In this document: positions 17,238 through 63,287 of the stretch, piece after piece | How the letters are laid out: each line of letters opens with the position of its first letter | Numbering within the stretch: position 1 is the first letter of the stretch | Origin: Candidatus Magasanikiibacteriota bacterium | Lineage (GTDB): Bacteria > Patescibacteriota > Patescibacteriia > Magasanikbacterales > UBA922 | Assembly: GCA_021648085.1 (NCBI GenBank) | Contig: JAKITS010000001.1 | Coordinates: 132,948-196,947, forward strand | Length of the DNA: 64,000 bases | Reading direction: 5' to 3' | Notes under the pieces: generated by a model | Told to the model about the DNA's origin: nothing | The model's input: the letters and a program-made list of their open reading frames with translations, nothing else | The model's database searches: none | Position numbers and translations under genes: made by a program

Positions 17238-17279
17238 CGAGATCCATTCGACTCCGCTTTGCTTCGCTCAGGATGACGT
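17238..17279. repeat. Family A repeat unit (inverse orientation)
   Basis: 'CGAGATCCATTCGACTCCGCTTTGCTTCGCTCAGGATGACGT'. Confidence 0.75.
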
Positions 17280-17389
17280 GTGGAAACAAATTTACAAATT
17301 TTGGATCCCAATCAAATTAAAAATGTCAATGTTAGGTTTTTTGTTTTGTATTATGTTCTGTGTCTTTCCTTATTTAGTCTACTGTTTTC

Positions 17390-18778
17390 TTATTGCCCCA
17401 TAAATCTAATCACCAAATTCACAGTTTTTAATAAAATAGACACGTCCAAAAATATAGATCGGTTTTTTATATAAAACAAATCGTATTGAAGTTTTTGTAA
17501 TGAGCTTTCCATTGTGTCGGTATAGTTTTGGTTTATTACAGCCCAGCCAGTTAATCCGGGTTTTACGACATGTCGCAGTGAATAATATGGCATTTGTTCT
17601 TCTAGTTTTTTTGTTATTTCAGGTCTTTCTGGACGTGGTCCCACTAGTCCAATTTCTCCTTTTAGCATGTTTATTGCTTGTGGCAATTCGTCCAATCTGG
17701 TTTTTCTTAGGAATTTACCAAAACTTGTGATTCGTTTATCACCCTTTTTTGCAAAAGTAGCACCATCTATTTCGGCACTTCCATCTTTTGACAGAGCAAA
17801 CATAGATCTAAATTTGTAGATCATAAAGTGTTTTCCGAAGCGACCAATTCGTTTTTGTTTGAAAAAAACAGGCCCTTTTGATGTTGCTTTAATACCTATT
17901 GCAATAAAAGGAAGTGCTAGAGCAAATATAATAAAAATAAGTACAGCTCCAAAAAAGTCTAAAACAGTTTTAAATTTTTCATACACTGTGTTTTCATGAT
18001 GTCGGAGGTGTTGCAAAAACCAACCTTCAGAAAAAGTAAATGGAGGAATTCTACCCGTCGCAACTTCATAAAAAGATGATAAATCATTGATTTGTACTTT
18101 CCAAAAAAGCAATTCATAAAATTCGCGCATTGCATGATGATCGTCTTTTAAATTTGGAGATATTACTACTAAATGTGCATTATGATTTGTAATTGCCGGT
18201 CTTATTGTATTTAAATTGTAATAAACATCAAAAGAAAATTCAGATGATTTTATGATCTTGTTTGGCTCTATTAATCCTACAATTTTATAGCCTCTTTCTG
18301 GATTTTTTTCGAAAATATCTATTAATTCTTTTGCGTCTTTAGTATAACCAACTAAAAGAACATTTGTTTGTAGTTTTCTTATTCCAGAAAATTTTCTAAA
18401 TAAAAGTCTCCATAAAAAACTTAAACTATATCCAGTAAACACATTTAAAAGTAGTAGTGTTTTTGGAGCTATTTTTGAATTATTTATTAGGTAGAAAAAG
18501 AACACTCCAACAACTAGTGACAGTATGGCAGTCTCCACAAAACGACGATAAAAGGTTTCTTTTTTTGATATTTTAATAAGATCGTATAGACCGTTTATAT
18601 AATTGTTCAAAATCCAAATTATAAAAATAACACTAAATAGGGGTAAGTGTGATTCTATTTTTTCTAATGTGGGTAAGTGAAAGTTTCGTATTAAAAAACT
18701 TAACCAAAATCCGACCAAAAGACTTAGAATATCTCCAGAAAGTAAAATTATTTGTTTGAATCTATAAATAAAACGCAT
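17390..18778 (-). CDS. Polyprenyl-phosphate hexose-1-phosphate transferase (WbaP/WcaJ-like initiating sugar transferase)
   Basis: N-terminal TM segments. The C-terminal bacterial sugar-transferase domain matches 'KFRSMF...GLTGWAVINQ' and 'LVGPRPERPE'. Confidence 0.8.
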   Translation of the reverse strand: MRFIYRFKQIILLSGDILSLLVGFWLSFLIRNFHLPTLEKIESHLPLFSVIFIIWILNNYINGLYDLIKISKKETFYRRFVETAILSLVVGVFFFYLINNSKIAPKTLLLLNVFTGYSLSFLWRLLFRKFSGIRKLQTNVLLVGYTKDAKELIDIFEKNPERGYKIVGLIEPNKIIKSSEFSFDVYYNLNTIRPAITNHNAHLVVISPNLKDDHHAMREFYELLFWKVQINDLSSFYEVATGRIPPFTFSEGWFLQHLRHHENTVYEKFKTVLDFFGAVLIFIIFALALPFIAIGIKATSKGPVFFKQKRIGRFGKHFMIYKFRSMFALSKDGSAEIDGATFAKKGDKRITSFGKFLRKTRLDELPQAINMLKGEIGLVGPRPERPEITKKLEEQMPYYSLRHVVKPGLTGWAVINQNYTDTMESSLQKLQYDLFYIKNRSIFLDVSILLKTVNLVIRFMGQ

Positions 18779-18855
18779 GATGTTTGTTTGCTCTCAATGG
18801 TAAAATGGTATATTATATAAGTAAAGTTACTATTAGTTTATATTGAATTTATAGC

Positions 18856-20883
18856 ATGTTTATGGAAAAAAGACAAGGTTTATTCTGTTTATTTTTTACT
18901 ACTTTAGTCATTATTTTGTTGCCAAATGTTTTGTTTGCACAAGTTTCAAATGATCCAAATGTGAAACAGTGGAGTTATAATGATTTGGGACTCTATAAAG
19001 CTTGGGCTAGTGAAACAGGATCAAAAGATGTTGTAGTTGCGATAATTGATAACGGTTTTGATACTTTTCACCCAGATCTTTATGATAATGTTTGGAAAAA
19101 TTCAGGTGAAATAGCTGGAAACAACATAGATGACGATAAAAACGGATATATAGACGATATTTGGGGTTGGAATTTTTCTTATAAAGATTTAGATGGGAGT
19201 GGTGGTATTTCGGCAGAAGAATCTTTTGGTAATAACGACCCAAGACCAAGTGCTTTTGATATTCCAGCTGTAGAAGATTTTATACATCACGGTACGTTAG
19301 TTGCTGGAATTATTGGATCTGTTGGAAATAATCTAACAGATGGTGTGGGTGTAAATTGGAATGTAAGTCTAATGAATTTGAAGGTAGTTGAAAGTAATGG
19401 AGATGGCTCTGCTAGTGCCTTGGTAAATGCAATTAGATATGCAGTAGATAACAATGCAGATGTGATAAACATAAGTATGGTGACTGGTCTTTTCGACGAA
19501 AAAATAAATGACGCTATAAAATATGCTTATGAAAACAATGTTGCCGTTGTCGCTGCAGCAGGAAATAACTCAAGATCATTAAATGTATCACCTCTTTATC
19601 CTGTTTGTACAGATGAAAAAACAGGGAAAAGAATGGTTTTGGGAGTGAGTGCTATGAATGAAGACCATAGAAAAGCTTTTTTCTCTAACTTTGGATCAAA
19701 CTGTATAGACATCACAGCTCCTGGTACAAATATAGCCAGTACAATGCGTTATGCTCCTCGTTATGGTCTTACAGAACAGTACGGTGGAGGGTGGAGTGGA
19801 ACTTCTTTTGCAACTCCTTTTGTGAGTGGAGCTCTTGCGCTTGTAAAATCTATTCAACCAAGCTGGGGTGTGGATAAACTTTTTGATGCTGTACTTTCTA
19901 CTGTTCACAGAACACCTCCAAAAGATCCAGAGTCTTATGCTCATTTGTTTGGAGCTGGTCTTTTGCAAATAGATAAGGCTGTAAAATTTGCAATGGAAAG
20001 TTTACCAGAAGTTCCAAAAGGAAATACTGTGGTTGCAGTAGACTTGAAAACGGGTTTAATTGAGTACAACGATTTAAAAAAAGAAGAGATTAGTCTGTTT
20101 ACAAAAAAAACAATTGCAGGTATAAATTCAATTACTTCATTTGTTGATAATGGACAGACAAAATTTGCAACTATAAAAAGAGAAAATGGTAAGGTAAAAA
20201 TAAGTATTTTAAATAGTGATTTTAAGGTTGAAAGCTCATTCAATGTGCCATTGTTTAGTAGTGATTTGGGTATAAAAGTCGGAAATGTTTTGGGTAGTGC
20301 AGAGTATGAAATAATATTATTTCCAAAATACAGCTCATTTACAACTTTTATTATTTATAGTAAAACTGGAGAATATCTAGACTCTAAAGAGGTAAAAATA
20401 AAACACACTGGAGTTTCACTAGATTTGGTAAACGGGGTTGAAAAAACAGAAATTGTGCTTGTTTATAAAAATGCTGACGGAAAATTTTCATTGAAGCATT
20501 TTGATACCAATTTAGCAGAAAAAAAGGAGATTCCACTATCTTTCTTCAAGGTTTTGCCAAATTTTAATGTTGGAGATCTAGATGGAGATAAAAAAGAAGA
20601 ATTTGTTGTTTCGTCTCGCAAAAACCAAGAGCCATTTGTGTCAATTTATGAACAAAACGGGGATTGGAGTAGAACATTTTATGCAAATTCGCCATCTTAT
20701 ACTGGTGGTTTTTCTTCCACAATTATAGATTATGACAATGATGGGAAAGATGATATTGTATTAAATTTATTATCAGGAGAAAAAAAGATTTCTGTTTGGA
20801 ATTATAGGTCAAAAAAGATAGGTAAGTGGGTTCCATTTAACGGAAAAAATGTGTCAAATGCTCATCTATTTGCTATTAAATAA
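18856..20883 (+). CDS. Secreted subtilisin-like serine peptidase (S8) with C-terminal FG-GAP/VCBS-like repeats
   Basis: Signal peptide. Catalytic triad blocks 'VAIIDNGFD', 'HGTLVAGIIG', 'GTSFATPFVSGALAL'. The C-terminal 'DLDGDKKEEFVV' and 'DYDNDGKDDIVL' are FG-GAP-like. Confidence 0.8.
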   Translation: MFMEKRQGLFCLFFTTLVIILLPNVLFAQVSNDPNVKQWSYNDLGLYKAWASETGSKDVVVAIIDNGFDTFHPDLYDNVWKNSGEIAGNNIDDDKNGYIDDIWGWNFSYKDLDGSGGISAEESFGNNDPRPSAFDIPAVEDFIHHGTLVAGIIGSVGNNLTDGVGVNWNVSLMNLKVVESNGDGSASALVNAIRYAVDNNADVINISMVTGLFDEKINDAIKYAYENNVAVVAAAGNNSRSLNVSPLYPVCTDEKTGKRMVLGVSAMNEDHRKAFFSNFGSNCIDITAPGTNIASTMRYAPRYGLTEQYGGGWSGTSFATPFVSGALALVKSIQPSWGVDKLFDAVLSTVHRTPPKDPESYAHLFGAGLLQIDKAVKFAMESLPEVPKGNTVVAVDLKTGLIEYNDLKKEEISLFTKKTIAGINSITSFVDNGQTKFATIKRENGKVKISILNSDFKVESSFNVPLFSSDLGIKVGNVLGSAEYEIILFPKYSSFTTFIIYSKTGEYLDSKEVKIKHTGVSLDLVNGVEKTEIVLVYKNADGKFSLKHFDTNLAEKKEIPLSFFKVLPNFNVGDLDGDKKEEFVVSSRKNQEPFVSIYEQNGDWSRTFYANSPSYTGGFSSTIIDYDNDGKDDIVLNLLSGEKKISVWNYRSKKIGKWVPFNGKNVSNAHLFAIK

Positions 20884-22617: not shown

Positions 22618-22632
22618 TATGATAATTATTTT

Positions 22633-22700
22633 GTCATTCCTTGCTTAATTAGGAATTTATGAGTCTTTAGTCATAAAATAGGAAGTGGATCCACAGTCAG
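22633..22700. repeat. Partial or divergent family B-like element
   Basis: Begins 'GTCATTCCTTGCTTAATTAGGAATTTATGAG' (family B left terminus). The right terminus is not recognisable. Confidence 0.35.
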
Positions 22701-22754: not shown

Positions 22755-22920
22755 ACGTCATCCTGAGCGAAGCCGAAGGATCTCGATTTAAGATCATTAA
22801 AACACAAAATATTCATAGTTCTAATGAAATTAAATCGAGATATTTCGACTCCACTGCGTTCCGCTCAATATGACGTGAGCTTTGATTTTCAACTCCGTTT
22901 CACCCCGCTCAATATGACGT
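22755..22920. repeat. Cluster of three family A repeat units between GT2 and the DUF2304-like gene
   Basis: 22755-22785 'ACGTCATCCTGAGCGAAGCCGAAGGATCTCG'. 22836-22876 'CGAGATATTTCGACTCCACTGCGTTCCGCTCAATATGACGT'. 22893-22920 'CTCCGTTTCACCCCGCTCAATATGACGT'. Confidence 0.75.
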
Positions 22921-27694: not shown

Positions 27695-27766
27695 GGCCTA
27701 TTCGTCTAGTGGTTAGGACGCCGGGTTCTCATCCCGGTAAGAGGGGTTCGATTCCCCTATAGGCTA
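27695..27766 (+). tRNA. tRNA-Glu (anticodon CUC)
   Basis: Cloverleaf with acceptor GGCCTAT/ATAGGCT, anticodon arm 'CCGGG TTCTCAT CCCGG' and T-arm 'AGGGG TTCGATT CCCCT'. No encoded CCA. Confidence 0.75.
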
Positions 27767-27796
27767 CATATAGATCTATTTAAAAATAAATCTAAT

Positions 27797-27870
27797 GGCT
27801 GGGTAGCTCAGTTGGTAAGAGCGCAGGATTCATAACCCTGAGGTCGGGAGTTCGACTCTCCCCCCAGTCA
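27797..27870 (+). tRNA. tRNA with CAU anticodon (elongator Met or Ile2-lysidine type)
   Basis: 'GGCTGGGTAGCTCAGTTGGTAAGAGC' D-arm, anticodon loop 'TTCATAA', T-arm 'GGGAG TTCGACT CTCCC', G1 pairs with C72 so it is not an initiator. Confidence 0.75.
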
Positions 27871-27878
27871 CAGAGGAA

Positions 27879-27914
27879 AGCAAATTAGGCAGAATAAGCA
27901 GATTAAGTAAGTAC
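27879..27914. repeat. Motif C (~32-35 nt), copy 1 of 3
   Basis: 'AGCAAATTAGGCAGAATAAGCAGATTAAGTAAGTAC'. Matches the reverse complements of 47661-47692 (28/31) and 38862-38893. Confidence 0.55.
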
Positions 27915-27950
27915 AAAAACAAAAAAACTCCATTTGGAGTTTTTTTTGTT
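27915..27950 (+). terminator. Intrinsic terminator after the tRNAs
   Basis: 'AAAAAACTCCATTTGGAGTTTTTTTT'. Confidence 0.65.
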
Positions 27951-28103
27951 TTAAGTTTTTACTTAACTACGTAGTAGTCTTAGTTCTTAACCTCGGAGAG
28001 GTCTTGTATAGTGGGTTGCATTATAGCAATAAATCAGAATACATTATATAATATATAGTATTGATAAAATGCAATCTTATGAAAAATAATGTTGTACAAA
28101 AAT

Positions 28104-28136
28104 TTGGGAGTTGAGATTGTAGATTTAATAAAATAA
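28104..28136. repeat. 33-bp direct repeat (left) flanking the rhuM cassette
   Basis: 'TTGGGAGTTGAGATTGTAGATTTAATAAAATAA', 30/33 identical to 29241-29273. Encodes the '...LGVEIVDLIK*' end of a 15-codon remnant ORF. Confidence 0.7.
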
Positions 28137-28138
28137 AT

Positions 28139-29161
28139 ATGATAAAAGACAAACCAAACAATAAAATAATTATATATACGGCTGACGGCGGTAATCCAAC
28201 AATTAATGTTCGTATCGAAGGAAAAACTGTATGGCTTTCACAAATTCAATTGGCTGAACTTTTTGGAACATCAAAAGCAAATATTAGCTTACATATTAAA
28301 AATATCTTTGAAGAAGGTGAATTAAGTAAAGAACCAACTGTTAAGGAATACTTAACAGTTCAAAAAGAAGGAGATAGAGATGTTTCTCGTCATATAGAAT
28401 ATTATAATCTAGACCTCATAATATCTCTTGGTTATCGGGTAAAGTCGCAAATCGCAACTCACTTTCGAAAATGGACAACAGAACGTCTTAGTGAGTATCT
28501 CGTAAAAGGTTTTACCATGGACGACGAACGACTCAAAGGTATGGGTGGAGGAAGCTTTTGGAAAGAATTACTAGATCGTATTCGTGATATCCGAAGCAGT
28601 GAAAAGGTGCTGTACCGCCAAGTGTTGGATTTGTATGCGACTAGTGTTGATTATGACCCAAATAGCTCTGAATCAATCAAGTTTTTCAAAATAGTACAAA
28701 ACAAACTTCATTATGCCACAAACAAAAATACTGCAGCTGAAACTATTTTTACACGCGCGGATGCCGAAAAAGATTTTATGGGTTTGAAAACATTTGCAGG
28801 TATATTACCAATATTGTCAGAAGTTGGGGTTGCCAAAAACTATCTTACCGAAGACGAGTTGTTTATATTAAACCGTATGGTTTCGGCTTTCTTTGATTTG
28901 GCAGAAATAAAAGCAAAAGAACAGAAAAAAATGTATATGGCAGACTGGGTGGCAGAGTTGGATAAATTTGCTGAAAATTATGGAAAGGGTGTTTTGAAAG
29001 ATGCAGGAAAAATAAGCCATAAACAAGCAGTAAAAAAAGCTCAAAAAGAATACAGACAATTTCAAGCTAAAACATTATCACCAGTTGAGGAGGCGTATTT
29101 GAAAAATATCAAAAACATACAAAAAGAGGTTGAACAAAAAACCAAGTCTTCTAAAAAATAA
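28139..29161 (+). CDS. rhuM: RhuM-family virulence/Fic-DOC-related protein
   Basis: N-terminal 'IIIYTADGGNPTINVRIEGKTVWLSQIQLAELFGTSKANISLHIKNIFEEGEL' is the hallmark RhuM block. Length 340 aa. Confidence 0.7.
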   Translation: MIKDKPNNKIIIYTADGGNPTINVRIEGKTVWLSQIQLAELFGTSKANISLHIKNIFEEGELSKEPTVKEYLTVQKEGDRDVSRHIEYYNLDLIISLGYRVKSQIATHFRKWTTERLSEYLVKGFTMDDERLKGMGGGSFWKELLDRIRDIRSSEKVLYRQVLDLYATSVDYDPNSSESIKFFKIVQNKLHYATNKNTAAETIFTRADAEKDFMGLKTFAGILPILSEVGVAKNYLTEDELFILNRMVSAFFDLAEIKAKEQKKMYMADWVAELDKFAENYGKGVLKDAGKISHKQAVKKAQKEYRQFQAKTLSPVEEAYLKNIKNIQKEVEQKTKSSKK

Positions 29162-29162
29162 T

Positions 29163-29273
29163 ATGGAAAAATTAAAAGTAAATTTAGAATCAGGGAAACA
29201 AAATCCAACATTTGAAATAATTGCGAAAATTGTTGAAGAGTTGGGGGTTGAGATTGGAGATTTAATGAAATAA
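29163..29273 (+). pseudogene. C-terminal half of an XRE-type HTH protein (36 codons), probably a gene remnant
   Basis: 'NLESGKQNPTFEIIAKIVEELGVEIGDLMK' matches helix 3 to the C-terminus of HTH_XRE ('ERGKRNPSLETLLKIAKALGVSLDEL'). The N-terminal helices are missing. It starts 1 nt after the rhuM stop and ends with the right 33-bp direct repeat. Confidence 0.45.
29241..29273. repeat. 33-bp direct repeat (right) flanking the rhuM cassette
   Basis: 'TTGGGGGTTGAGATTGGAGATTTAATGAAATAA'. Confidence 0.7.
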
Positions 29274-29319
29274 TTATTATGATAAATTCAAAATAGGCAA
29301 AATCAAGAATAAAAATAAA

Positions 29320-29358
29320 TAAACTCCTTGAAGAGTCAGGTTGGAGTTTTTTTGTTTT
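29320..29358 (+). terminator. Intrinsic terminator
   Basis: 'AACTCCTTGAAGAGTCAGGTTGGAGTTTTTTTGTTTT'. Confidence 0.5.
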
Positions 29359-29439
29359 CTAAGATATTTTGTATTTTTGTAGTTTTTTGCTACCATAATA
29401 ATATATTGTTGAAATAATAAGAAATGTTTAGAATATGGT

Positions 29440-30087
29440 ATGAGAATTAAAAATAAATTAAAAATTGAGCGTCCTAGGGAGAAAATGAAAAAATACGGCC
29501 CTGAAAAACTAAAAGATGAAGAGCTTTTGGCAATTTTATTACGCACTGGTACGAAAAAAATGGATGTAATTAAATTAGCTCAAAAGATATTACGTGATTT
29601 TAAAGATGAGAAAATTCTTGATGTAACTATTGTTGATTTGCAGAAAATTCATGGTTTAGGTTTAGCAAAAGCATGTGAAATCGTGGCATGTTTTGAGCTT
29701 GGACGTAGAAAATTACAAGGAAAGAAAACAAATATTTTACTTACACCAAAAGATGTCTGGGAAGCAATGGTAGATATTCGTAATAGTAAAAAAGAACATT
29801 TTGTTGTTTTTTATCTTAATAGCAGAAGTCAAGAAATCAAACGAGAGATTGTTTCGATAGGTACAATAAATGCGAGTCTTGTCCATCCACGGGAAGTTTT
29901 TGAGAGTGCAATTAAAAACAATGCTTCATCAATAATTCTTGCTCATAATCACCCATCTGGAGATCTTGAACCGTCACAAGATGATATAGAAATTACAAAA
30001 AAACTTGTTTATGCAGGAAAAATTTTGGATATTCAAGTGGTTGATCATGTAATAGTATCTAATAAAGAATTTAAGAGTTTTATATAA
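29440..30087 (+). CDS. radC: RadC-like JAB/JAMM-domain protein
   Basis: 'ILAHNHPSGDLEPSQDD' JAMM motif. N-terminal 'EELLAILLRTG' helix-hairpin-helix region. Confidence 0.85.
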   Translation: MRIKNKLKIERPREKMKKYGPEKLKDEELLAILLRTGTKKMDVIKLAQKILRDFKDEKILDVTIVDLQKIHGLGLAKACEIVACFELGRRKLQGKKTNILLTPKDVWEAMVDIRNSKKEHFVVFYLNSRSQEIKREIVSIGTINASLVHPREVFESAIKNNASSIILAHNHPSGDLEPSQDDIEITKKLVYAGKILDIQVVDHVIVSNKEFKSFI

Positions 30088-30088
30088 A

Positions 30089-31291
30089 ATGCCAAAAAAT
30101 AATATTATAATTAATGATGGGGGATATTATGCTATAAAAGGTTTTGCTTATCAAATAGATAAAGCAATTTTAGAAATCTTAAATACTGATGACGAGAGTA
30201 AAAGTATAAATATTGAGCAAATTCAAGACATAGATTTAGCTGATTCAGTTATACAAGTTAAATATAAAGAAACTACTAAGCTAGTTCCCTCTCAAGTAAA
30301 CAAGCCAATATCACAACTCATTGAAGAATTTAAAGTAGATAACACAAAAAAATATATTTTGTATACTTATTTTGATGACTTAAATGGATATGAGGAAAAA
30401 GTAGATCAAGATAAAAAAATTTCAAAGGATACTTTGGATGAATTTTTAGGGAACCTAAAAAATGATTTTACAGAACAGGAAAGAATAGACTTTGTTAATA
30501 ATTTTTATTTAGATTTTTCTCCAGAGTTTCAATCTCAATTTAATTCTGTAATTTTAAAATTAAAAGAACAGAGTTTTATTGGAAATACTGACGAAGAGGC
30601 AATGTTTTATTATGCAAATATTTCAGACTTTTTGTATAAATTAGTCACAAATAATCCAACCATAAAAATTAAAAACAGGACGTGTACTCAAAAAGAAATA
30701 TTTGATTATTTAAAAAACGGTAAGTGTCTAATCTTTAATTCTAGTTTTAGAGAATATCAAGGTGATCAAAAATATTTTACTTTTATTAAAAAACAACATT
30801 TTTCTAATAGAAATATAGATTATTTTGAAAGATTCATTATTGTAGAATTAAGTAGAAATGAAAGCATTGCAGATATAAAAGAAGTTGTTTTTAAAATTAA
30901 AGATGCATTTTATAACAAATCAGGAACATGGAGAGGTAAAGTAATAAAATCTCCTGCCCCGTATATTTATATGATTAATATTTCAGATGATAGTTTAATT
31001 CAGTTAAAAACTGAATTATTAAAAGAAAGTACAATTTTCAAAGATGGTTTTGATTTTGCTGGTGCTAATTTTTCTTTAGATTCAATAAAACAAAATTCTA
31101 CAATCCACAACAATCTTTGTTTAAAATTAGTTAATAATGAAGATATTTTAAAGCGATTAATAAGTGAAGATTTTCAACATCCAAAAGAAATTTATCAATT
31201 TTACACAAATGAAAGTATTATAATTAAACCTAATATGAAAAATATTGAAATACAAATAAAAAACATATCAGATATTATTTTTATTCTTTAA
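30089..31291 (+). CDS. DUF4297 (Cap4-type nuclease domain)-like protein, putative partner of the HerA-like ATPase
   Basis: The N-terminus 'GGYYAIKGFAYQIDKAIL' resembles the DUF4297/Cap4-nuclease N-terminal signature as recalled. It lies 11 nt upstream of a HerA-type ATPase, matching the gene order of the DUF4297-HerA defence pair. No SIR2 motif. Confidence 0.5.
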   Translation: MPKNNIIINDGGYYAIKGFAYQIDKAILEILNTDDESKSINIEQIQDIDLADSVIQVKYKETTKLVPSQVNKPISQLIEEFKVDNTKKYILYTYFDDLNGYEEKVDQDKKISKDTLDEFLGNLKNDFTEQERIDFVNNFYLDFSPEFQSQFNSVILKLKEQSFIGNTDEEAMFYYANISDFLYKLVTNNPTIKIKNRTCTQKEIFDYLKNGKCLIFNSSFREYQGDQKYFTFIKKQHFSNRNIDYFERFIIVELSRNESIADIKEVVFKIKDAFYNKSGTWRGKVIKSPAPYIYMINISDDSLIQLKTELLKESTIFKDGFDFAGANFSLDSIKQNSTIHNNLCLKLVNNEDILKRLISEDFQHPKEIYQFYTNESIIIKPNMKNIEIQIKNISDIIFIL

Positions 31292-31302
31292 CTTAAAATA
31301 TC

Positions 31303-33012
31303 ATGACAAATTCAACTGATCAAAAACTTGCTTTCGTAACTTCCGTTTATCCAAATAAAGTAAAAATTGAAGTAGAAAATCTAACTGCTTTTAAAGATAA
31401 TATAGATGACGCACTTGGTGATTTAAAAATTGGCTCTTATCTTGAAATTTCTGATAATGAAGGTTGTAAACTTATTGCTATTATTGAAAGCTATCAAATA
31501 GAATTAAAAGAAAGAATTATAGAAAATGAACAAGGTGAAAAAAATAAAGAAACTTACAACGCTTACGTATTAGAAGCTAGTCCTCTCGGTACAATAAAAG
31601 GTAAAGAATTTACTAGAGGTGGCGATGCTTTGACTATTCCACCAACAGAGGTAGGACCTGCAAGTGAAGAAAATATAAAATTAATTTATGAAAATGGATT
31701 TGAGCCACAAGAAAAGTTTTTATTTGCAAAATTAGCACAAGATGAAAATATTGAAGTTCCTGTAAATGGGAATAAATTTTTCAATAAACATTTCGCAATT
31801 GTTGGGTCTAGTGGTTCAGGGAAATCGCATACGATAGCAAAAATTATACAAAAAGCTGTTGCAGAGAAAAATGGTGAATTCGAATTAAACAATTCTCACA
31901 TTATAATATTTGATATTCACAACGAATATAAAACAGCTTTCCCAGATGCCAACTTTTTGGATATTAGCAACTTAGTTTTGCCTTATTGGTTACTCAATAG
32001 TGAAGAATTAGAAGAACTATTTATTGATACGGAAGCTAATGACCACAATCAAAAAAATGTTTTCAAAGAATCAATTGTAACGAATAAAAAGGACAGTTTA
32101 ATTAAAGAAGATGGTGAAAGTCATGAAGATTTTAACAATAGAAAAGAAAAGATTCATTATGATTCTCCTGTTTTGTTTGATATTCAAAAAGTTTTGGAAT
32201 TTGCTCAAAACAAAAATCAAGAAATGGTTCCAGGTGCAAATAATAAAGAAAAACAGGGTTCATTATTTGGAAAATTAACCAATTTTGTCAGTAGATTAGA
32301 GAATAAATTGAATGATAAAAGATTTGAATTTTTATTAGGAGATAATTCAAAAGAAATTTCTTTTGAAGATACTTTGAGACAATTTATTGGATATAAAGAT
32401 GACAATAAATCAAATGTAACAATTATTGATTTAAGTGGTGTTCCTTTTGACGTTCTTAGTGTCACAGTAGCTTTAATTTCAAGAATATTATTTGATTATG
32501 GATATTTTTATAAAAAATATTTAAACGAAGGTGTTGATTTGGAAACTCCATTATTGCTTATATATGAAGAAGCACATAAATATGTACCAAAAAATGATTT
32601 TGCAAAATTTAGAGCATCGAGGAATGCTATTGAAAGAATTGCAAAAGAAGGAAGAAAATATGGTGTAACTTTAGGTATTATAAGCCAAAGGCCATCTGAA
32701 ATATCTGAAACCATCTTCTCTCAATGCAATAACTTTATTGCTATGAGATTAACAAATCCAACTGATCAGAATTATGTAAAAAGATTGTTACCAGATACAT
32801 TGGGGAATCTAATTGATAATTTACCATCATTACAATCTGGAGAAGGACTTTTGCTTGGAGAATCAATAATTATGCCATCTTTAGTTAAAATAGAAAAATG
32901 TGATAACGATAAACAGCCATCTTCAAATGATGTGAAATATTTGGAAACATGGAAAGAGGAATGGAAAGATGTTGATTTTAATAACATAATTAAAAAATGG
33001 AAATATGAATAA
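31303..33012 (+). CDS. HerA/FtsK-superfamily ATPase (DUF87-like)
   Basis: Walker A 'VGSSGSGKSHT', Walker B 'LLLIYEEAHKYVP', the 'AKEGRKYGVTLGIISQRPSEIS' arginine-finger block typical of HerA/VirB4-type ATPases, and an N-terminal beta-barrel-like region. Confidence 0.75.
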   Translation: MTNSTDQKLAFVTSVYPNKVKIEVENLTAFKDNIDDALGDLKIGSYLEISDNEGCKLIAIIESYQIELKERIIENEQGEKNKETYNAYVLEASPLGTIKGKEFTRGGDALTIPPTEVGPASEENIKLIYENGFEPQEKFLFAKLAQDENIEVPVNGNKFFNKHFAIVGSSGSGKSHTIAKIIQKAVAEKNGEFELNNSHIIIFDIHNEYKTAFPDANFLDISNLVLPYWLLNSEELEELFIDTEANDHNQKNVFKESIVTNKKDSLIKEDGESHEDFNNRKEKIHYDSPVLFDIQKVLEFAQNKNQEMVPGANNKEKQGSLFGKLTNFVSRLENKLNDKRFEFLLGDNSKEISFEDTLRQFIGYKDDNKSNVTIIDLSGVPFDVLSVTVALISRILFDYGYFYKKYLNEGVDLETPLLLIYEEAHKYVPKNDFAKFRASRNAIERIAKEGRKYGVTLGIISQRPSEISETIFSQCNNFIAMRLTNPTDQNYVKRLLPDTLGNLIDNLPSLQSGEGLLLGESIIMPSLVKIEKCDNDKQPSSNDVKYLETWKEEWKDVDFNNIIKKWKYE

Positions 33013-34402: not shown

Positions 34403-34456
34403 AATTTGATCAATATCATTATTTTTGTTAAAATATAATTAATAAATTTTTTTAAT

Positions 34457-35704
34457 ATGAAAATAATAAGAGTGGTTGAATTATTTGCTGGAGTCGGAGG
34501 GTTTCGAATCGGGCTTAAACAAGCAGATAATGAAAAAGTGAAATATAAAACTATTTGGAATAGTCAGTGGGAACCAAGTACAAAAACACAACATGCTTCA
34601 GAAATATACAAAAAACATTTTGGTGAAAAAGGACATTCTTGTGAGGATATTAGAAATGTTGTTGATAATAAATTTCACACAATTCCTGAACATGATTTAT
34701 TAGTTGGTGGTTTTCCTTGTCAAGATTATTCTGTAGCACGTACAGCAAATCAAGCAAATGGTTTAATTGGTAAAAAAGGTGTTTTGTGGTGGTCTATTTT
34801 TGATATTTTAAAAAAAAGTGGAGAAAAAGCTCCCAGTTTTTTATTGTTAGAAAATGTTGATAGACTTCTTAAATCACCAACTAAACAAAGGGGGCGTGAT
34901 TTTGCTGTAATGCTCTCCTCTTTGGCTTCACTTAATTATATAGTGGAATGGAGGATTATTAATGCAGCAGAATATGGTTTTCCACAACGACGAAGACGTG
35001 TTTTTATTTTAGCTTATAAAAAAGGAACAAAACTTAATAAAAAAGCACGGAATATAAATTTAGAAGATTGGATAAATAAAAAGAGTGTAATGGCAAAAGG
35101 TTTTCCTATTTATAAAAATAATAATTTGTTAACCTCGTTTCAGATTAACACTAATCCGGCTAAAGTTTCTGAAGAATTTTCAAAAAATTCTCCAAAAATA
35201 AGTCCTTTTTATAATAGTGGTATAATGATTGATAATAAAATATATACAAAAAAAGTTCATCCAAAATATAATGGTAAAAAAGTAATTCTAAAAGACGTTT
35301 TAATTGATGAGAAACATGTACCGGAAGAATTTTTTATTGATGAGAAAACATTTGAAAGGTGGAAATATTTAAAAAATAGTAAAACAGAAAAGAGATGTAC
35401 TAAAGATGGTTTTGAATATAGTTATTCAGAAGGTGGTATGATTTTTCCAGATAATTTAGAGAATGCATCTAGGACAATTGTGACAGGTGAAGGAGGCTCA
35501 TCACCTTCAAGGTTTAAACACGTTATTAAAACAAAAACAGGACGTTTACGCAGATTAACACCAATAGAATTAGAACGACTTAATATGTTTCCAGATAATC
35601 ATACAGAAGGTGTATCAAATACAAAACGAGCTTTTATAATGGGTAATGCTCTTGTTATCGGTGTTATCAAAAAATTAGGTCAAACACTTTCAGACTTTAT
35701 ATAA
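34457..35704 (+). CDS. DNA (cytosine-5)-methyltransferase
   Basis: Motif I 'ELFAGVGGFRIG', motif IV 'GGFPCQDYS', motif VI 'ENV', and a target-recognition domain between. Confidence 0.9.
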   Translation: MKIIRVVELFAGVGGFRIGLKQADNEKVKYKTIWNSQWEPSTKTQHASEIYKKHFGEKGHSCEDIRNVVDNKFHTIPEHDLLVGGFPCQDYSVARTANQANGLIGKKGVLWWSIFDILKKSGEKAPSFLLLENVDRLLKSPTKQRGRDFAVMLSSLASLNYIVEWRIINAAEYGFPQRRRRVFILAYKKGTKLNKKARNINLEDWINKKSVMAKGFPIYKNNNLLTSFQINTNPAKVSEEFSKNSPKISPFYNSGIMIDNKIYTKKVHPKYNGKKVILKDVLIDEKHVPEEFFIDEKTFERWKYLKNSKTEKRCTKDGFEYSYSEGGMIFPDNLENASRTIVTGEGGSSPSRFKHVIKTKTGRLRRLTPIELERLNMFPDNHTEGVSNTKRAFIMGNALVIGVIKKLGQTLSDFI

Positions 35705-35711
35705 ATTCATA

Positions 35712-44848: not shown

Positions 44849-44865
44849 TAAAAATTAAGTTTAAA

Positions 44866-47408: not shown

Positions 47409-47476
47409 AATAACTAATAATTAGTAGCTAACAAAGAACAAGAAGATTACGTTTATTTTAATTATTTATATTTTGT

Positions 47477-47636
47477 GAAATTGTAAGGGGATATTTCGAC
47501 TCCGTTTCACTTCGCTCAACATGACGTGAATATTTGTGTCATCCTTAGCGAAGTCGAAGGATCCCCCAAATTAATTCACAAAATTTTAAATATTAACAAT
47601 TCTGATGATTCTATTTCGAGAACTCTCTCTATCGCT
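47477..47636. repeat. Cluster of three family A repeat units
   Basis: 47477-47517 'GGGGATATTTCGACTCCGTTTCACTTCGCTCAACATGACGT'. 47528-47555 'GTCATCCTTAGCGAAGTCGAAGGATCCC'. 47606-47636 is a degenerate copy. Confidence 0.7.
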
Positions 47637-47660
47637 TGGGATGACATATTTAACTTCGGT

Positions 47661-50114: not shown

Positions 50115-50224
50115 ACGTCATATTGAGCGGAACGAAGTGGAGTCGAAATATCTCGTGTTTAGTTCATTAATTTTAGTTTTTATGATATTTTCTCGAGATC
50201 CTTCGACTTCGCTCAGGATGACGT
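50115..50224. repeat. Inverted pair of family A units separated by 38 nt
   Basis: 50115-50155 'ACGTCATATTGAGCGGAACGAAGTGGAGTCGAAATATCTCG'. 50194-50224 'CGAGATCCTTCGACTTCGCTCAGGATGACGT'. Confidence 0.8.
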
Positions 50225-50817: not shown

Positions 50818-51516
50818 ATGAAAAAAAATAAAGAAAAAATTATAGTATTATCACTTGGGGGTTCACTTATAATTCCACCAGAAGGGTTCAATAGAAAATT
50901 TCTAAAAGGTTTCAAAAAAATGATCTTGAGTCATATTGAAAAGAATTACAGATTTATAATTGTATGTGGCGGGGGAGCAACAAGTAGAAAATATCAAGAT
51001 GCGGTGAGCGATGTCACAAAACTTATTTCAGAGGATATAGATTGGATTGGAATTCATGCAACTAGATTGAATGCACATTTTGTACGAACAATTTTTCGTA
51101 AATGGGCAAATCCAAAAGTAATAAAAAATCCAACCAAAAAGATTGAATGGAAAGAAGACATTTTGATAGCTTCTGGCTGGAAACCAGGTTGGTCTACAGA
51201 TTATGATGCTGTAAAATTGGCAGAATTGTACGGAGCAGAAAAAGTTATAAACTTATCCAATATAACTTATATTTATAGCGAGGATCCAAAGAAAAATAAA
51301 GATGCTAAAAAGATAAAAGATATCACTTGGAAAAAATTTAGAAAAATTGTAGGAGACGAGTGGATTCCTGGCTCAAACCTACCTTTTGACCCAATCGCTA
51401 GCCGAGAAGCAGACAAGCTAAAATTGTCTGTAATAGTAATGAATGGAACGAAACTAAAACAAGTAGAAAAAGCAATCAAAGGCAAAAAGTTCAAAGGCTC
51501 TTTGATTCATCCATAA
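50818..51516 (+). CDS. Amino-acid-kinase family protein, archaeal-type UMP kinase-like
   Basis: 'KIIVLSLGGSLI' and 'FIIVCGGGATSRKY' resemble archaeal PyrH blocks. Confidence 0.45.
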   Translation: MKKNKEKIIVLSLGGSLIIPPEGFNRKFLKGFKKMILSHIEKNYRFIIVCGGGATSRKYQDAVSDVTKLISEDIDWIGIHATRLNAHFVRTIFRKWANPKVIKNPTKKIEWKEDILIASGWKPGWSTDYDAVKLAELYGAEKVINLSNITYIYSEDPKKNKDAKKIKDITWKKFRKIVGDEWIPGSNLPFDPIASREADKLKLSVIVMNGTKLKQVEKAIKGKKFKGSLIHP

Positions 51517-51532
51517 ATATAAATTAGTTAAA

Positions 51533-51568
51533 ACAAAAAAGAAGCAATTTAGCTTCTTTTTTGTTTTA
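51533..51568. terminator. Bidirectional intrinsic terminator
   Basis: 'AAAAAAGAAGCAATTTAGCTTCTTTTTTGTTTT'. Confidence 0.7.
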
Positions 51569-51569
51569 T

Positions 51570-52010
51570 TTATTCCTCACCCCTTATCACAATCTTCCTT
51601 CTATTTTCTTCAGCTTGTATCAAATCTATTTCAATTATATCTTTGTCGGCAATTAATTCTTGTACTTTCTCTGGCCATTCTATCAAAGTCAAAGTATCCT
51701 TTTTTCCAATATAATCTTCTGCGCCAATTTCTATCAATGCTTCCTCATCTTTCAATCTGTAAGTATCTATGTGGATAAGTTTTTTTATTCCATTTTTTTC
51801 TTTGTCCAAAGTATACACATTCATCAAAGTAAAAGTAGGACTATTTATAGTTCTTTTTATTTTTAAACCCTGCGCAATTCCTTTTACAAAAGTACTTTTC
51901 CCGGCACCCAATTCACCATTTAGCAAGATAATATCTCCGCCTTTTAATTCTTTTACTAAATTTTTTCCAACTTCTTCTGTTTCTGTTGGTGAATTGGTTA
52001 TAAATTCCAT
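51570..52010 (-). CDS. tsaE: tRNA threonylcarbamoyladenosine biosynthesis ATPase TsaE
   Basis: 'ILLNGELGAGKSTFVKGIAQGL' P-loop, 146 aa. Confidence 0.8.
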   Translation of the reverse strand: MEFITNSPTETEEVGKNLVKELKGGDIILLNGELGAGKSTFVKGIAQGLKIKRTINSPTFTLMNVYTLDKEKNGIKKLIHIDTYRLKDEEALIEIGAEDYIGKKDTLTLIEWPEKVQELIADKDIIEIDLIQAEENRRKIVIRGEE

Positions 52011-56329: not shown

Positions 56330-56379
56330 ATTTGAGAAGTTCTAATTGTTATATCGTTTCGCTTGTTTTTTGCCTTGTT

Positions 56380-56466
56380 GTCATTCTCAGCTTGACTGGG
56401 AATCCAGAGTCTGCAAACCAGAATGTTGAATCAAATCCTGGACCCCCAATCAAGTTGAGGATGACG
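56380..56466. repeat. Family B MITE-like element (87 nt)
   Basis: 'GTCATTCTCAGCTTGACTGGGAATCCAGAGTCTGCAAACCAG...GGACCCCCAATCAAGTTGAGGATGACG'. Confidence 0.75.
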
Positions 56467-59398: not shown

Positions 59399-59410
59399 AA
59401 GAATAAAAAT

Positions 59411-59446
59411 AAAAAAGACGCTGAAATGAATTAGCGTCTTTTTTAA
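59411..59446. terminator. Bidirectional intrinsic terminator
   Basis: 'AAAAAAGACGCTGAAATGAATTAGCGTCTTTTTT'. Confidence 0.7.
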
Positions 59447-59469: not shown

Positions 59470-59511
59470 CGAGATCCATTCGACTCCACTTCATTCCACT
59501 CAGGACGATGT
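59470..59511. repeat. Family A repeat unit overlapping the 3' end of the Mur-ligase gene
   Basis: 'CGAGATCCATTCGACTCCACTTCATTCCACTCAGGACGATGT'. Its terminal 'TCAGGACGATGT' is the reverse complement of the gene's last codons ACA TCG TCC TGA (T S S stop). Confidence 0.7.
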
Positions 59512-61566
59512 AAGTTTGTCTACCAAATTTTTAATCATTCCGCGGAAGCCGTGGGAACCTAGGAAAACTATAACATTTCCAGCTTCACTATTTTTTTCTA
59601 AATATTCTAGAAGTTCAGCGTCTTGCTCTAAATATAAAACATTGTTGTGAGTTTTCTTTATAATTTCTGCCAATTCTTTTCCGTCTGCAGGTTTACTTTC
59701 TTCGCTGGCAGATTTTACTTTTGTAAGTCTTGGGATGATTACAGTATCCGCATTTTCAAAAGCATTGTCATAAAAAGGAAAAGACTGACTTTTTCTATTT
59801 CCTGTATTTGGTTCGTAAATTGCAATAACTTTTTCAGAATAAAGCTTTTTGAGTGTGGATAATACAGAAATTGCTTTTGTAGGTGAGTGGGAGATATCGT
59901 CGTAAATATCTATTTCTCCACTAAATCTTTTTTCTAATCTTCTTTTTATTCCACGGAAACTTCCCAGTGCGTTTATTATTTTTTCTGGTTCAATTCCAGT
60001 TTGGTGCGCCATAGCAAAACATCCGCAGATATTTTCTGCCATATATTCTCCAATAATTGGCAGTATTATTTTGTAAATTTCTCTATTGTGGATAATATCA
60101 AAACTTAAACCTTCTTTTGTTTGAACTATGTTTTTATAGCTATAATCGTTTTCTACAGATTCACCATATTTTATCAATTTTCCACTGTATTCTTCTAAAA
60201 CTTCGGCAATATTTTTTCCATCTGTACAAGCCACAAGAAGCCCATTTTCTGGAATCATTTTTACTAAATTTTTGAAAGCATTTTTGTAATCTTTTTCTGT
60301 TGGGTAAATATCTGCATGATCCCAAGCTGAGGCTGTCAAAAGTACATGAGTGGGGGAATAAAGACTAAATTTTGGCTTTATATCCCAGCGAGCAGTTTTA
60401 TATTCATCACCTTCCAAAATACTCCATTTTCCGTCTGTAATTTCTGCACTTTCCTTCATATTTGCAGAAAGCCCACCAAACATATAGCTTGGGTTCATTT
60501 CTGAATTTTTGAAAATCCAAGTCAAAAGTGTTGTGTTTGAAGTTTTTCCATAAGTTCCTGCGCAAACAAGTGAATTTTCTTTCAAAAAATATTTTGCAAT
60601 TACTTCTGGATAAGACATATATGGAATTTTATTTTCCAAAACAAACTTCCATTCTGCATTTGTAGAACTTGCTACATTTCCCACAACTACCAAATCTGGA
60701 TTTCCATTTGCTGCCATTTTTTCTGGATGCCAGCCTGGGTAAAATGTCACCTGCTTTTCTTTTAAGTGTGTAGAAATTGGTGGAAAAAATCCAGCATCAC
60801 TTCCTGTGACAGCCCAACCTTTTTTCTTGAATGCAATTGCCAGAGCGCTCATGGCAACTCCACAAATTCCTATGAAATGTATGTGTTTTGGTTTTTTTAC
60901 TAATATCTCTTTCAATTTTTCTAAATCATCACTCCAATTTTCTCCATCAAACCATTCCAAACCTTTAAATTGTAATTTGTAAATATCGGTTGGTCTTTGT
61001 GCTGAGCCCAAATAAATATATTTTGCACCAATAGTTTTGGCGTATTCAATAGCTTTTAGCATCATCCCCATTCCTGTATTTTTGTTGTCTGTATTCAAAT
61101 TGTAAAAAGGATAAGAATAGTGAAATATTTCTGAATTTTCATAAGCTATACAATATCCAACAGGTTCGTTGTTTGTGGTGTATTTAAAAACTTTATTGAA
61201 ATTGCTTTTTTCTGGATTTGTAAAAATTTCTTTGATTTTGTTTGCGCTAAAAACCCCTTCACCAAACTTAGTTTCGTAAAAATCTTTACCCATTTTGTGA
61301 ATATTCCAATGATAATTTTCAAGTGGTAAATTTTTAAGCTCAAGATGTATTTCTTCTGTTTTTCTGAGTATTCTACGATTTTCGCTAGACAATTCAAATT
61401 TACTTAAATCAATACGAACACTACGAGTTTTGTTCATCAATCCTTTTTCTACGCGTGTAAAAACATAACCTTGGTTGTACAAAGAGTTTATGTTTTCTTC
61501 GCTAAAATCATTTATATTTTTTTCGTCCCAAGACAGGTATTTCATAATTAAAACAGCGCTATCCAA
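59500..61566 (-). CDS. Mur ligase (MurC/Mpl-type UDP-N-acetylmuramate:amino acid/peptide ligase) with a ~230-aa N-terminal extension
   Basis: The C-terminal 460 aa have 'HIHFIGICGVAMSALAIAFKKKGWAVTGSD' (MurC/Mpl N-domain), 'VCAGTYGKTSNTT' P-loop and 'GSHGFRG'. The N-terminal 230 aa ('NSLYNQGYVFTRVEKG...SSENRRILRK...MGMMLKAIEYAKTIGAKYIYLG') form a separate domain. Confidence 0.7.
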   Translation of the reverse strand: MDSAVLIMKYLSWDEKNINDFSEENINSLYNQGYVFTRVEKGLMNKTRSVRIDLSKFELSSENRRILRKTEEIHLELKNLPLENYHWNIHKMGKDFYETKFGEGVFSANKIKEIFTNPEKSNFNKVFKYTTNNEPVGYCIAYENSEIFHYSYPFYNLNTDNKNTGMGMMLKAIEYAKTIGAKYIYLGSAQRPTDIYKLQFKGLEWFDGENWSDDLEKLKEILVKKPKHIHFIGICGVAMSALAIAFKKKGWAVTGSDAGFFPPISTHLKEKQVTFYPGWHPEKMAANGNPDLVVVGNVASSTNAEWKFVLENKIPYMSYPEVIAKYFLKENSLVCAGTYGKTSNTTLLTWIFKNSEMNPSYMFGGLSANMKESAEITDGKWSILEGDEYKTARWDIKPKFSLYSPTHVLLTASAWDHADIYPTEKDYKNAFKNLVKMIPENGLLVACTDGKNIAEVLEEYSGKLIKYGESVENDYSYKNIVQTKEGLSFDIIHNREIYKIILPIIGEYMAENICGCFAMAHQTGIEPEKIINALGSFRGIKRRLEKRFSGEIDIYDDISHSPTKAISVLSTLKKLYSEKVIAIYEPNTGNRKSQSFPFYDNAFENADTVIIPRLTKVKSASEESKPADGKELAEIIKKTHNNVLYLEQDAELLEYLEKNSEAGNVIVFLGSHGFRGMIKNLVDKLTSS

Positions 61567-62678: not shown

Positions 62679-62968
62679 AATTGGTAAATTTTAACGCTAA
62701 GAATTTATTTAATCTTTTTTTTAGGTCAGTTTTATTATATTTTGAGCGAAAACATTATAAAAAAGTGAAAAATAGCAGTACTATATTGAACTTTTTTAGA
62801 ATTTTTGTAGCAAAAATAGAGTAAAGAGGAGCTAAGAAAGAAATTTTAAATGCATTTTTACTATAGTGAAATAGTATCAAAAAGTAGTGTTTTTTACAAG
62901 TTGACCTTGATTTTTTTGTAAATATATGATAGATTGCATAGAACACTCTCAAACAAAAGGAGAAAATC

Positions 62969-63163
62969 ATGAAAAAAAGTAAAGACATGGATGTGAGTGG
63001 TCAGGAAAAAGGTGTAAAATGGATTTGTAGGTGTACTGTTCTTTGTCTAGTAGCACTCCTTGTTTATAAAATTATTATAGGAGATACTAACGATATTCAT
63101 TTTTTTTGGGAAAAGAAAAATATGTTGGAAGTATTTGCCAACCATATAAAAAACTTGCATTAA
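62969..63163 (+). CDS. Small membrane protein (64 aa)
   Basis: Strong RBS 'AAAGGAGAAAATCATG', one TM helix, downstream hairpin terminator 'CTTGCATTAATTTGCAAGTTTTATTTTT' (63144-63180). Confidence 0.4.
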   Translation: MKKSKDMDVSGQEKGVKWICRCTVLCLVALLVYKIIIGDTNDIHFFWEKKNMLEVFANHIKNLH

Positions 63164-63205
63164 TTTGCAAGTTTTATTTTTGTATAAAATTTGTTAATCA
63201 AAATA

Positions 63206-63287
63206 GGGGATCCTTCGACTGTCGCTTAGGATGACGTGGTAATATTACGTCATATTGAGCGAAGTGAAACGGAGTCGAAATATCCCC
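63206..63287. repeat. Back-to-back family A units (divergent inverted pair)
   Basis: 63206-63237 'GGGGATCCTTCGACTGTCGCTTAGGATGACGT'. 63247-63287 'ACGTCATATTGAGCGAAGTGAAACGGAGTCGAAATATCCCC', nearly identical to the reverse complement of 47477-47517. Confidence 0.8.

Follow-up and report, generated by a model that had tools for sequence, protein, structure and literature searches.

Few non-coding features of bacterial genomes are as abundant as REP (repetitive extragenic palindromic) repeats. A 64,000-nt stretch of DNA from Candidatus Magasanikiibacteriota, a candidate phyla radiation (CPR) bacterium with a genome of ~1 Mb, carries a short palindromic sequence that recurs between its genes, and it raises the question of what kind of element this is and how it came to be dispersed there. 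We refer to the whole stretch (~30% G+C) as the window and to the repeat as family A. From the evidence given below, family A probably consists of selfish, non-autonomous palindromic DNA elements that resemble REPs and bacterial interspersed mosaic elements (BIMEs), form a variant of the CGTC-tagged REP superfamily and are moved in trans.

An original prediction, made from the letters of the window alone, had described a dispersed palindromic repeat, and the family is real and lies where it had been placed. With up to three mismatches, the 18-mer ACGTCATCCTGAGCGAAG has nine matches in the window against 0.02 expected, and none of 100 shuffles reached nine. Repeat detection run independently sorted these sites into families of direct and of inverted repeats. 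Scanning the window with nhmmer profiles built from the short and the long form of the module yielded 16 intergenic modules in eight loci (E from 1e-14 to 0.1; E<=0.1 for the intergenic set) and a 17th module inside the leucyl-tRNA synthetase gene leuS (45669-45700). At least 16 units had been predicted, and the count agrees, with the leuS copy as one that had been missed; nine loci had been claimed where we count eight, and the supposed degenerate remnants (40660-40760 and 62730-62760) did not reach significance with nhmmer (E 0.5-47). Both orientations occur, as had been said, and about equally (seven modules on the plus strand, ten on the minus strand). The short and long variants both exist as described, and the near-identity noted between the copy at 63247 and the reverse complement of 47477 extends over 79 nt (63247-63325 versus 47449-47527, 92%).

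Family A makes up ~1.5% of the window and is present in eight of its ~18 long intergenic spacers, with a patchy distribution that leaves 1-17 kb and 23-39 kb without copies. In DNA of ~30% G+C, such matches might be suspected of being chance or low-complexity AT-rich similarity, a possibility that had been raised with the prediction itself. The number of 18-mer matches relative to expectation and the nhmmer E-values down to 1e-14 rule this out, as do the G+C content of the modules, which is higher than that of the flanking DNA, and the presence of the same module in high-G+C phyla. We consider the probability of this explanation negligible.

Aligned from head to tail, family A modules are 31-52 nt long and have four parts: an unpaired head, a stem (P1), a purine-rich core and a tail. 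The head is (A)CGTC in ten of the 17 modules, TGTC in four and another sequence in three (CATC twice, CGTT once). P1 is formed by an A-T pair, a T-A pair and a free triplet, which gives ATCCT/AGGAT and ATATT/AATAT in the window and ATCTT/AAGAT in a contig from a relative (L121, described below). The core is constant, with GAGCGAAG on the 5' side and (N)AGTCGA on the 3' side, and tails read CTC(G) or CCC(C). The pattern GTC-AT...AT-C is found in at least 14 of the 17 modules and GTCAT in 14. The short form, CGTC-ATCCT-GA-GC-GAA-GC-GA-AGGAT-CTC, has five Watson-Crick pairs, G.A/A.G and then two Watson-Crick pairs round a GAA loop. We have drawn it by hand as P1, a tandem G.A/A.G step and a GCGAAGC mini-hairpin, a model that covers ACGTCATCCTGAGCGAAGCGAAGGATCTC and in which the G.A pairs are putative. 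In the long form, 5' GAGCGAA and 3' (G)AGTCGA make an internal loop and an inner hairpin, P2, is added. P2 is 7 nt long in the window (G-CGAAGC-G or G-TGAAAC-G type) and reaches 50 nt in other phyla.

The modules are joined in two kinds of inverted pair. Four tail-to-tail pairs (22755-22876, 43239-43369, 47536-47641 and 50115-50224) have their heads outward and AT-rich spacers of 38-50 nt with complementary ends. These are the pairs with 35-90-nt AT-rich spacers of the original prediction, which missed three head-to-head pairs whose modules lie only 8-9 nt apart (43369/43378, 47527/47536 and 63237/63247). One module can serve in both kinds of pair, and there are arrays at 22755-22920, 43239-43434 and 47449-47641. 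Each well-preserved pair consists of a short and a long module, one with a CCT-type and one with an ATT- or GTT-type P1, so the triplets match within arms and not between arms. Folded as single-stranded DNA, the dimers give long hairpins (z -4.5 to -7); this had been proposed for every locus, but 47535-47641 does not fold in this way (z=0.2). The arms of the tail-to-tail dimers are terminal inverted repeats (ACGTCAT...ATGACGT), and to that extent the name miniature inverted-repeat transposable element, which had been suggested, is apt. In the strict sense it is not borne out, there being no clear target-site duplication and no parent insertion sequence (IS).

This anatomy can be compared with that of known repeats. 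The CGTC-tagged REPs defined by Di Nocera, De Gregorio & Rocco (2013, BMC Genomics 14:522; PMC3733652) have an unpaired CGTC, TGTC or CCTC head, an 8-9-bp stem with A-T and T-A as its first pairs, a 4-5-nt loop and a 3-nt unpaired CCA-like tail. They form inverted dimers, predominantly head-to-head and often heterodimers, around spacers with complementary ends; intragenic copies occur, and no transposase is linked to them. Neisseria dRS3, Rickettsia RPE-4 and RPE-6 and Wolbachia repeats belong to the class, which was found in five phyla in the 2013 survey, mostly in alpha-proteobacteria, and for which no mobilising enzyme was found (PMC3733652). Family A shares with them the head, the stem that begins with A-T and T-A, the short unpaired tail, the inverted heterodimers with complementary spacer ends, the mostly intergenic location with in-frame intragenic copies, and the lack of a linked transposase. 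It differs in that five Watson-Crick pairs lead into a purine-rich core, where CGTC-tagged REPs have a simple stem of 8-9 bp and a loop of 4-5 nt, in the variable-length inner hairpin of the long form, and in a CTC/CCC rather than a CCA tail. Further differences are that tail-to-tail pairs (four) are as common as head-to-head pairs (three), whereas CGTC-tagged REPs are mostly head-to-head, and that the host is a CPR bacterium. The strings GAGCGAAG and CGTCAT are not in the text or supplements of PMC3733652. Because loop size, stem form and tail do not fit, we do not, on a comparison of text descriptions, assign family A to any of the four described CGTC families and provisionally treat it as a structural variant of the superfamily.

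Two other systems resemble family A in organization. E. coli BIMEs likewise alternate two module types in orientation, have distinct head-head and tail-tail spacers and form arrays of variable unit number downstream of genes, but their head is GTAG rather than CGTC and the sequences are unrelated. In the REPIN-RAYT system (Bertels & Rainey; Nunvar et al.), the unit that replicates is apparently the inverted REP dimer, and dimers of near-identical sequence stand at distant loci, as in family A. REPINs, however, have a GTAG head and lineage-specific sequences, while family A has a CGTC head, a core found across phyla and, in the window and the 1.85 Mb of loci searched with E. coli RayT, no match to a RAYT (REP-associated tyrosine transposase).

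How widely the module occurs was examined by seeking the exact 18-mer in species-representative genomes (596 Gb), where by our own arithmetic ~17 matches are expected by chance. The figures that follow hold for the matches listed. At least 120 stretches from more than 12 phyla contain the 18-mer, with 125 copies. The groups named in their titles are Acidobacteriota, Verrucomicrobiota, Planctomycetota, Gemmatimonadota, Chloroflexota, Nitrospirota, Nitrospinota, Omnitrophota, Poribacteria, Eisenbacteria, Bacteroidota, Clostridia, Gamma- and Alphaproteobacteria, Myxococcales, Oligoflexales, Fimbriimonadales, Falkowbacteria and Peribacteria. A few of the matches are coincidences within genes, and most extend as a family A module. 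Across phyla the layout is ...GAGCGAAG-[0-50 nt hairpin]-(N)AGTCGAAGGATC(T/C)C, followed by an inverted partner beyond a spacer, and many 8-kb loci from other phyla contain several inverted module pairs. The original prediction had treated the family as a peculiarity of a small genome; its core is instead shared across many phyla.

These matches also provided evidence for the stem. The P1 triplet and its partner are CCT/AGG in 109 modules, TCC/GGA in nine, ATT/AAT in six, CCC/GGG and GCT/AGC in four each, TCT/AGA in three, TTC/GAA in two, and GGT/ACC, GTC/GAC and CTT/AAG in one each. The 3' triplet is perfectly compensated in 31 of 45 non-CCT modules, and there are ten stem types. Among 19 distinct 29-mers, 96% of cells pair and double changes occur at all three variable pairs; none of 500 shuffles reached the observed covariation, and slid controls did not come close. 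The first pairs, A-T and T-A, are invariant in these 29-mers at positions that the selecting pattern had fixed. Large P2 inserts are strongly self-complementary (fold z -2 to -6).

One module has been inserted into a coding sequence, that of leuS. The gene (44955-47408) encodes a LeuRS that is 100% identical to a protein from a metagenome-assembled genome (MAG) of Candidatus Magasanikbacteria, where it is encoded by a contig of 984,181 bp, and the next matches are from Magasanikbacteria and other Patescibacteria. The module at 45669-45700 is a short one on the minus strand, ATGTCATCTTGAGCGCTAGCCGAAAAATCCCC (nhmmer E 1.5e-4), and lies in frame; on the coding strand the insert adds 11 residues, which are absent from the four other Magasanikbacteria/CPR LeuRS sequences compared. 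L121 is a JGI contig from a relative whose LeuRS is 88% identical. Its LeuRS has a longer insert at the same site, and the DNA there is a 14-codon perfect long module. Aligned with LeuRS from Thermus thermophilus (1H3N), the insert occupies an 8-residue gap just after ILFPVEGK, at a beta-hairpin turn that leads into the editing domain. In-frame insertion into genes is the behaviour that made the Rickettsia palindromic elements (RPEs), reportedly described by Ogata et al. in 2000 and 2002, famous. As in family A, RPEs are small palindromic repeats of a ~1-Mb genome that carry a GTCAT/ATGAC signature and insert in frame at a surface loop of a housekeeping gene, where the site is the same in relatives and the sequence changes. 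ATGAC (GTCAT) is a hallmark of RPE-4, -6 and -7 and of Wolbachia elements (Matsutani et al. 2013; PMC3767692). Unlike the RPEs, family A belongs to another phylum and lifestyle and is mostly intergenic, with one intragenic copy in 64 kb.

Comparison with close relatives showed that copies come and go. The gene order leuS-comEC-lactamase_B-dsbB is kept in L121, but the spacer between lactamase_B and dsbB is 173 nt long in the window and 55 nt in L121. Alignment revealed the 110-nt dimer at 50115-50224 as one clean block in the window opposite an empty site in L121. The spacer between leuS and comEC holds a head-to-head dimer in both genomes; window positions 47567-47641 are missing from L121, which has there a dimer of a second repeat family (family B, described below) that the window lacks. 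In a second relative, L138 (glutamate dehydrogenase 85% identical), a family B dimer upstream of gdh is kept and the adjacent set of family A modules differs. Reading family A as REP-, BIME- or RPE-like, as the original prediction did, is thus supported by head and stem, the GTCAT motif, the arrays, the polymorphic 110-nt dimer and the leuS copy. That reading is essentially right, and the kind of element is itself a known one; what is new is the CPR host group, the module architecture, the in-frame LeuRS copy and the breadth over which the core recurs.

Stem covariation and a conserved internal loop are also typical of structured RNAs, and RNA roles have been put forward both for the REPs of E. 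coli and for the Correia elements of Neisseria. Family A could mainly be functional RNA hairpins that protect mRNA 3' ends, are processed by RNase III or RNase Y or act in attenuation, with the purine-rich internal loop as a possible protein- or RNA-binding motif. The genomic context speaks partly for this. All eight loci lie downstream of a gene end (three convergent, five tandem, none divergent), the dimer at 50115-50224 stands between lactamase_B and dsbB and may be co-transcribed with them, the head-to-head dimer after leuS is kept in the relative, and the window encodes an RNase Y (36102-37631). However, the upstream genes are all on the plus strand while seven modules are plus and ten minus, so that transcription would cover the purine-rich strand in only about half of the cases. 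Four loci have a terminator-like hairpin between the gene end and the repeats (17077-17110, 43192-43225, 63150-63175 and, identified by eye, 59410-59443). For the same reason the copies, which had been described as lying immediately 3' of stop codons or between convergent genes, do follow gene ends and lie between convergent genes at three loci, but not immediately after the stop. Copies have been gained or lost between close relatives, one is antisense within a coding sequence, and family A has no match in Rfam: only two tRNAs passed the gathering score in the whole window, and E-value searches with two loci gave family A only weak plant miRNA hairpin models. Mixed orientation, position beyond terminators and turnover between relatives all weaken the RNA explanation, and we regard it as unlikely. 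Three specific RNA resemblances were also rejected: a hammerhead-like core (G8 and A9 are missing), a canonical kink-turn (the bulge is 1 nt, not 3) and an origin from a tRNA T-arm (the resemblance is superficial).

Binding of gyrase, IHF and Pol I is known for E. coli BIMEs, and the modules could instead be host sites that act at the DNA level, where a recombinase, gyrase or a nucleoid protein would bind or cut, or preferred landing pads for IS110-type elements or phages, with a role in chromosome organization; E. coli BIMEs and Neisseria dRS3 would be the precedents. The BIME-like architecture, in which two module types alternate with distinct head-head and tail-tail spacers, would suit such sites, and there is an HU-like gene at 35759-36043. 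Families A and B cluster together at three loci, but ~2.2 such loci are expected among ~18 long spacers. Roles of this sort are listed for REPs in PMC3733652. The patchy distribution, with none in 1-17 kb or 23-39 kb, fits them poorly, as do the differences in copy sets between relatives, and none of the copies in the window is interrupted by an IS or prophage. We therefore consider host sites a very unlikely explanation.

No transposase, integrase or HUH protein was detected among the window open reading frames (ORFs) scanned by Pfam, which were most of the long ones. Within 1.2 kb of the 125 listed copies elsewhere no gene family recurs except ABC-transporter ATPases, at four loci and by chance. 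ORFs between distant inverted modules in other genomes encode housekeeping functions, and no IS with family A ends was seen among them. Carriage by phages was rejected, with 14 exact 18-mer matches in 2.9 million viral contigs. In a plasmid search, true family A copies were found in cyanobacterial, Hymenobacter and Granulicella replicons; a plasmid link to the alpha-proteobacterial hosts of CGTC REPs was dismissed, as the Azospirillum match examined is not a canonical module. Full-text literature searches with strings from family A and with repeat-encoded peptides returned nothing relevant, as did a search for MITEs or REPs in Patescibacteria/CPR.

Several observations weigh against selfish elements moved in trans. 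REP sequences normally differ between species, and a ~29-nt core that is near-identical across phyla is unusual for them. With E. coli RayT as the single query, tblastn gave no match to the window or to 1.85 Mb of loci. By nearest-neighbour energies single modules have z ~0; because they are not predicted to be stable, the hairpin within a module rests on covariation and non-canonical G.A pairs. There is only one clean empty site among the comparisons, and its 9-nt surplus (TAATATCATT versus AATTATAATT, 7/10 match) is unconvincing as a target duplication; no target duplication is evident at other family A copies. Lastly, the position of the head-to-head dimer after leuS is kept although the LeuRS proteins differ by 12%, which fits a retained function too.

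With these points taken into account, trans-moved selfish DNA elements are still the reading that we favor as probable. The elements would spread as single-stranded DNA hairpins whose head and core are read by a trans-acting enzyme, either of the HUH/RAYT type or of another class. Only copies that keep the core would remain mobile, which may account for how little the core varies among phyla, while P1 would drift by compensatory change, shifting toward A/T-rich triplets in a genome of 30% G+C. Copies would persist where they do no harm, past terminators, between genes and in protein surface loops. Any effects on neighboring genes would be secondary, such as RNA hairpins in operon transcripts (for example from 50115-50224) or a donated stop codon. 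A broader proposal is that the core is a single constrained element, kept near-identical in CPR bacteria, Acidobacteriota, Verrucomicrobiota, Planctomycetota, Bacteroidota, Clostridia and others by one widespread trans-acting enzyme or a conserved host factor. We offer this tentatively and think it rather doubtful.

The individual loci show how the modules are combined. At 17238-17279 a single long module on the minus strand, ACGTCATCCTGAGCGAAGCAAAGCGGAGTCGAATGGATCTCG when read on that strand (E 4e-12), lies between convergent epimerase and sugar transferase genes, after the terminator-like hairpin at 17077-17110, and adjoins a family B copy. The tail-to-tail heterodimer at 22755-22876 consists of a short CCT-type module (22755-22785, plus), a 49-nt AT-rich spacer and a long ATT-type module (22835-22876, minus), with a DNA fold of -28.6 kcal/mol (z -7.0). 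A long module with a degenerate tail (22887-22920, minus; E 3e-7) follows directly, making a three-module array. The degenerate extra-long module GCGTTATCCTGAGTGAAATGGAGTAAAGTAGAGTGAAGTCGAATGGATCTCG (39862-39913, plus; E 1e-4) is flanked by methyltransferase and pyrophosphatase genes.

Downstream of trx and the terminator-like hairpin at 43192-43225, the tail-to-tail heterodimer at 43239-43369 pairs a short ATT-type module with a TGTC head (43239-43269, plus) and an extra-long CCT-type module (43320-43369, minus) across a 50-nt spacer with the complementary ends ATCAC...GTGAT (fold z -4.5). A long ATT-type module with a conserved tail (43378-43434, plus; E 5e-14) stands head-to-head with it, 8 nt from 43369, and is followed by a family B dimer (43472-43561) and then gdh. 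After leuS, the head-to-head heterodimer at 47449-47586 comprises a tail and long GTT-type module (47449-47527, minus), an 8-nt gap and a short CCT-type module with its tail (47536-47566, plus); its fold z is -5.5, and this is the dimer with an ortholog in L121. The remainder, 47567-47641, is a spacer and a degenerate right arm (47610-47641, minus; nhmmer E 0.35; fold z 0.2), absent from L121, and forms a decayed tail-to-tail dimer together with the module at 47536-47566.

The 110-nt tail-to-tail heterodimer at 50115-50224 consists of a long ATT-type module (plus), a 38-nt spacer and a short CCT-type module (minus), folds with z -6.2 and ends 14 nt ahead of the dsbB start codon. A single long module with the variant head ACATCGTCC (59470-59511, minus; E 2e-11) lies past the terminator-like hairpin of the convergent gene (59410-59443) and provides the final codons and TGA stop of a Mur-ligase-like gene (59500-61566, minus). 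The product of this gene is 688 aa long, and its N terminus is extended by ~225 residues with a weak match to ATE_C (E 2e-4). At 63186-63325, downstream of the terminator-like hairpin at 63150-63175, a head-to-head heterodimer is formed by a tail and short CCT-type module (63206-63237, minus), a 9-nt gap and a long ATT-type module (63247-63287, plus) with its tail. It folds with z -5.1 and is the reverse-complement counterpart of 47449-47586.

By Pfam, the genes beside the repeats in the window are all ordinary housekeeping genes. The upstream and downstream neighbors are, respectively, an epimerase and a sugar transferase; a GT2 and a DUF2304 gene; a methyltransferase and a pyrophosphatase; thioredoxin and glutamate dehydrogenase; LeuRS and ComEC; a metallo-beta-lactamase and DsbB; an unknown gene and the Mur-ligase-like gene; and a small ORF and an NlpC-like gene. 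Two low-G+C blocks contain no family A copies, a polysaccharide cluster at 1-17 kb and an island at 28-36 kb after two tRNAs. The first (1-17064) is a packed plus-strand cluster of polysaccharide or teichoic-acid-like genes (LicD, GT2, deacetylase, HAD, nucleotidyl transferase, GDPD, WavE and epimerase) with a G+C of 0.26-0.29; it is free of repeats and its GC skew is strongly positive. Pfam gave no match for two ORFs of the cluster (1745-2713 and 2714-3406). The second (27695-35704; G+C 0.28) lies directly after tRNA-Glu and tRNA-Met and has no copies of either family. It encodes RhuM, RadC, a 400-aa protein without a Pfam match, a HerA-like DUF87 ATPase, a MutH/Sau3AI-like nuclease and a C5 cytosine methylase, and has the appearance of an acquired island that carries a restriction-modification or defence system. 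Terminator-like hairpins of closely similar sequence, AAAACAAAAAAAACTCC...GGAGTTTTTTTTGTTTT, which are two-way, occur at 27912-27960, 35697-35758, 44846-44899 and 51514-51575; with 65-86% identity to a reference copy, these gene-end hairpins make up a separate small sequence family.

Family B has the form TGTC-AT-CCTCAA-CTCGA-TTGGGG-AT-CCAG with an inverted partner, and its copies lie at 17127-17217, 38737-38826, 43472-43561 and 56379-56465, with a degenerate one at 22630-22700. It fits the published definition of CGTC-tagged REPs exactly (PMC3733652), with tails of CCA(G), and three of the five copies adjoin family A copies. The dimer region at 43456-43574 matches RF02625 (WsnRNA46, Wolbachia sRNA 46) with 30 bits and E 2.6e-4, below the gathering threshold of 65; family B aligns over the whole model, GTCAT...GGGATCCAG...CTGGAT...ATGAC, and family A does not match it. 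In L121, a 67-aa gene call (2635-2838) lies largely over family B and family A repeats and is probably a spurious ORF made by them. Four metagenome contigs whose glutamate dehydrogenases are 56-60% identical, L148 (6004-9890), L158 (5987-9504), L178 (4551-4592) and L193 (7846-7887), contain heads that resemble those of family A but have other stem triplets (CGTCATCCCGAGCG and TGTCATTGCGAGCG are examples). By impression, matches in a relaxed head-pattern scan of these contigs are far sparser than in the window.

These results bear on genome annotation and on the biology of the family. The repeats create spurious small ORFs and extend or end real genes, as with the stop codon of 59500-61566, and should be masked in CPR MAGs. 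The elements thrive in a reduced CPR genome of ~1 Mb, where one copy has been built into LeuRS. Across at least 12 phyla the core is constant while the stem changes in a compensatory manner, which points to a shared recognition mechanism, and a genome of about a thousand genes narrows the search for it. We know of no mover for the CGTC-tagged class. If the core is indeed read by one widespread partner, this ~1-Mb genome with its dense copies would be a minimal system in which to find that partner, and the partner would answer the question of what moves CGTC-type REPs, which has been open since 2013.

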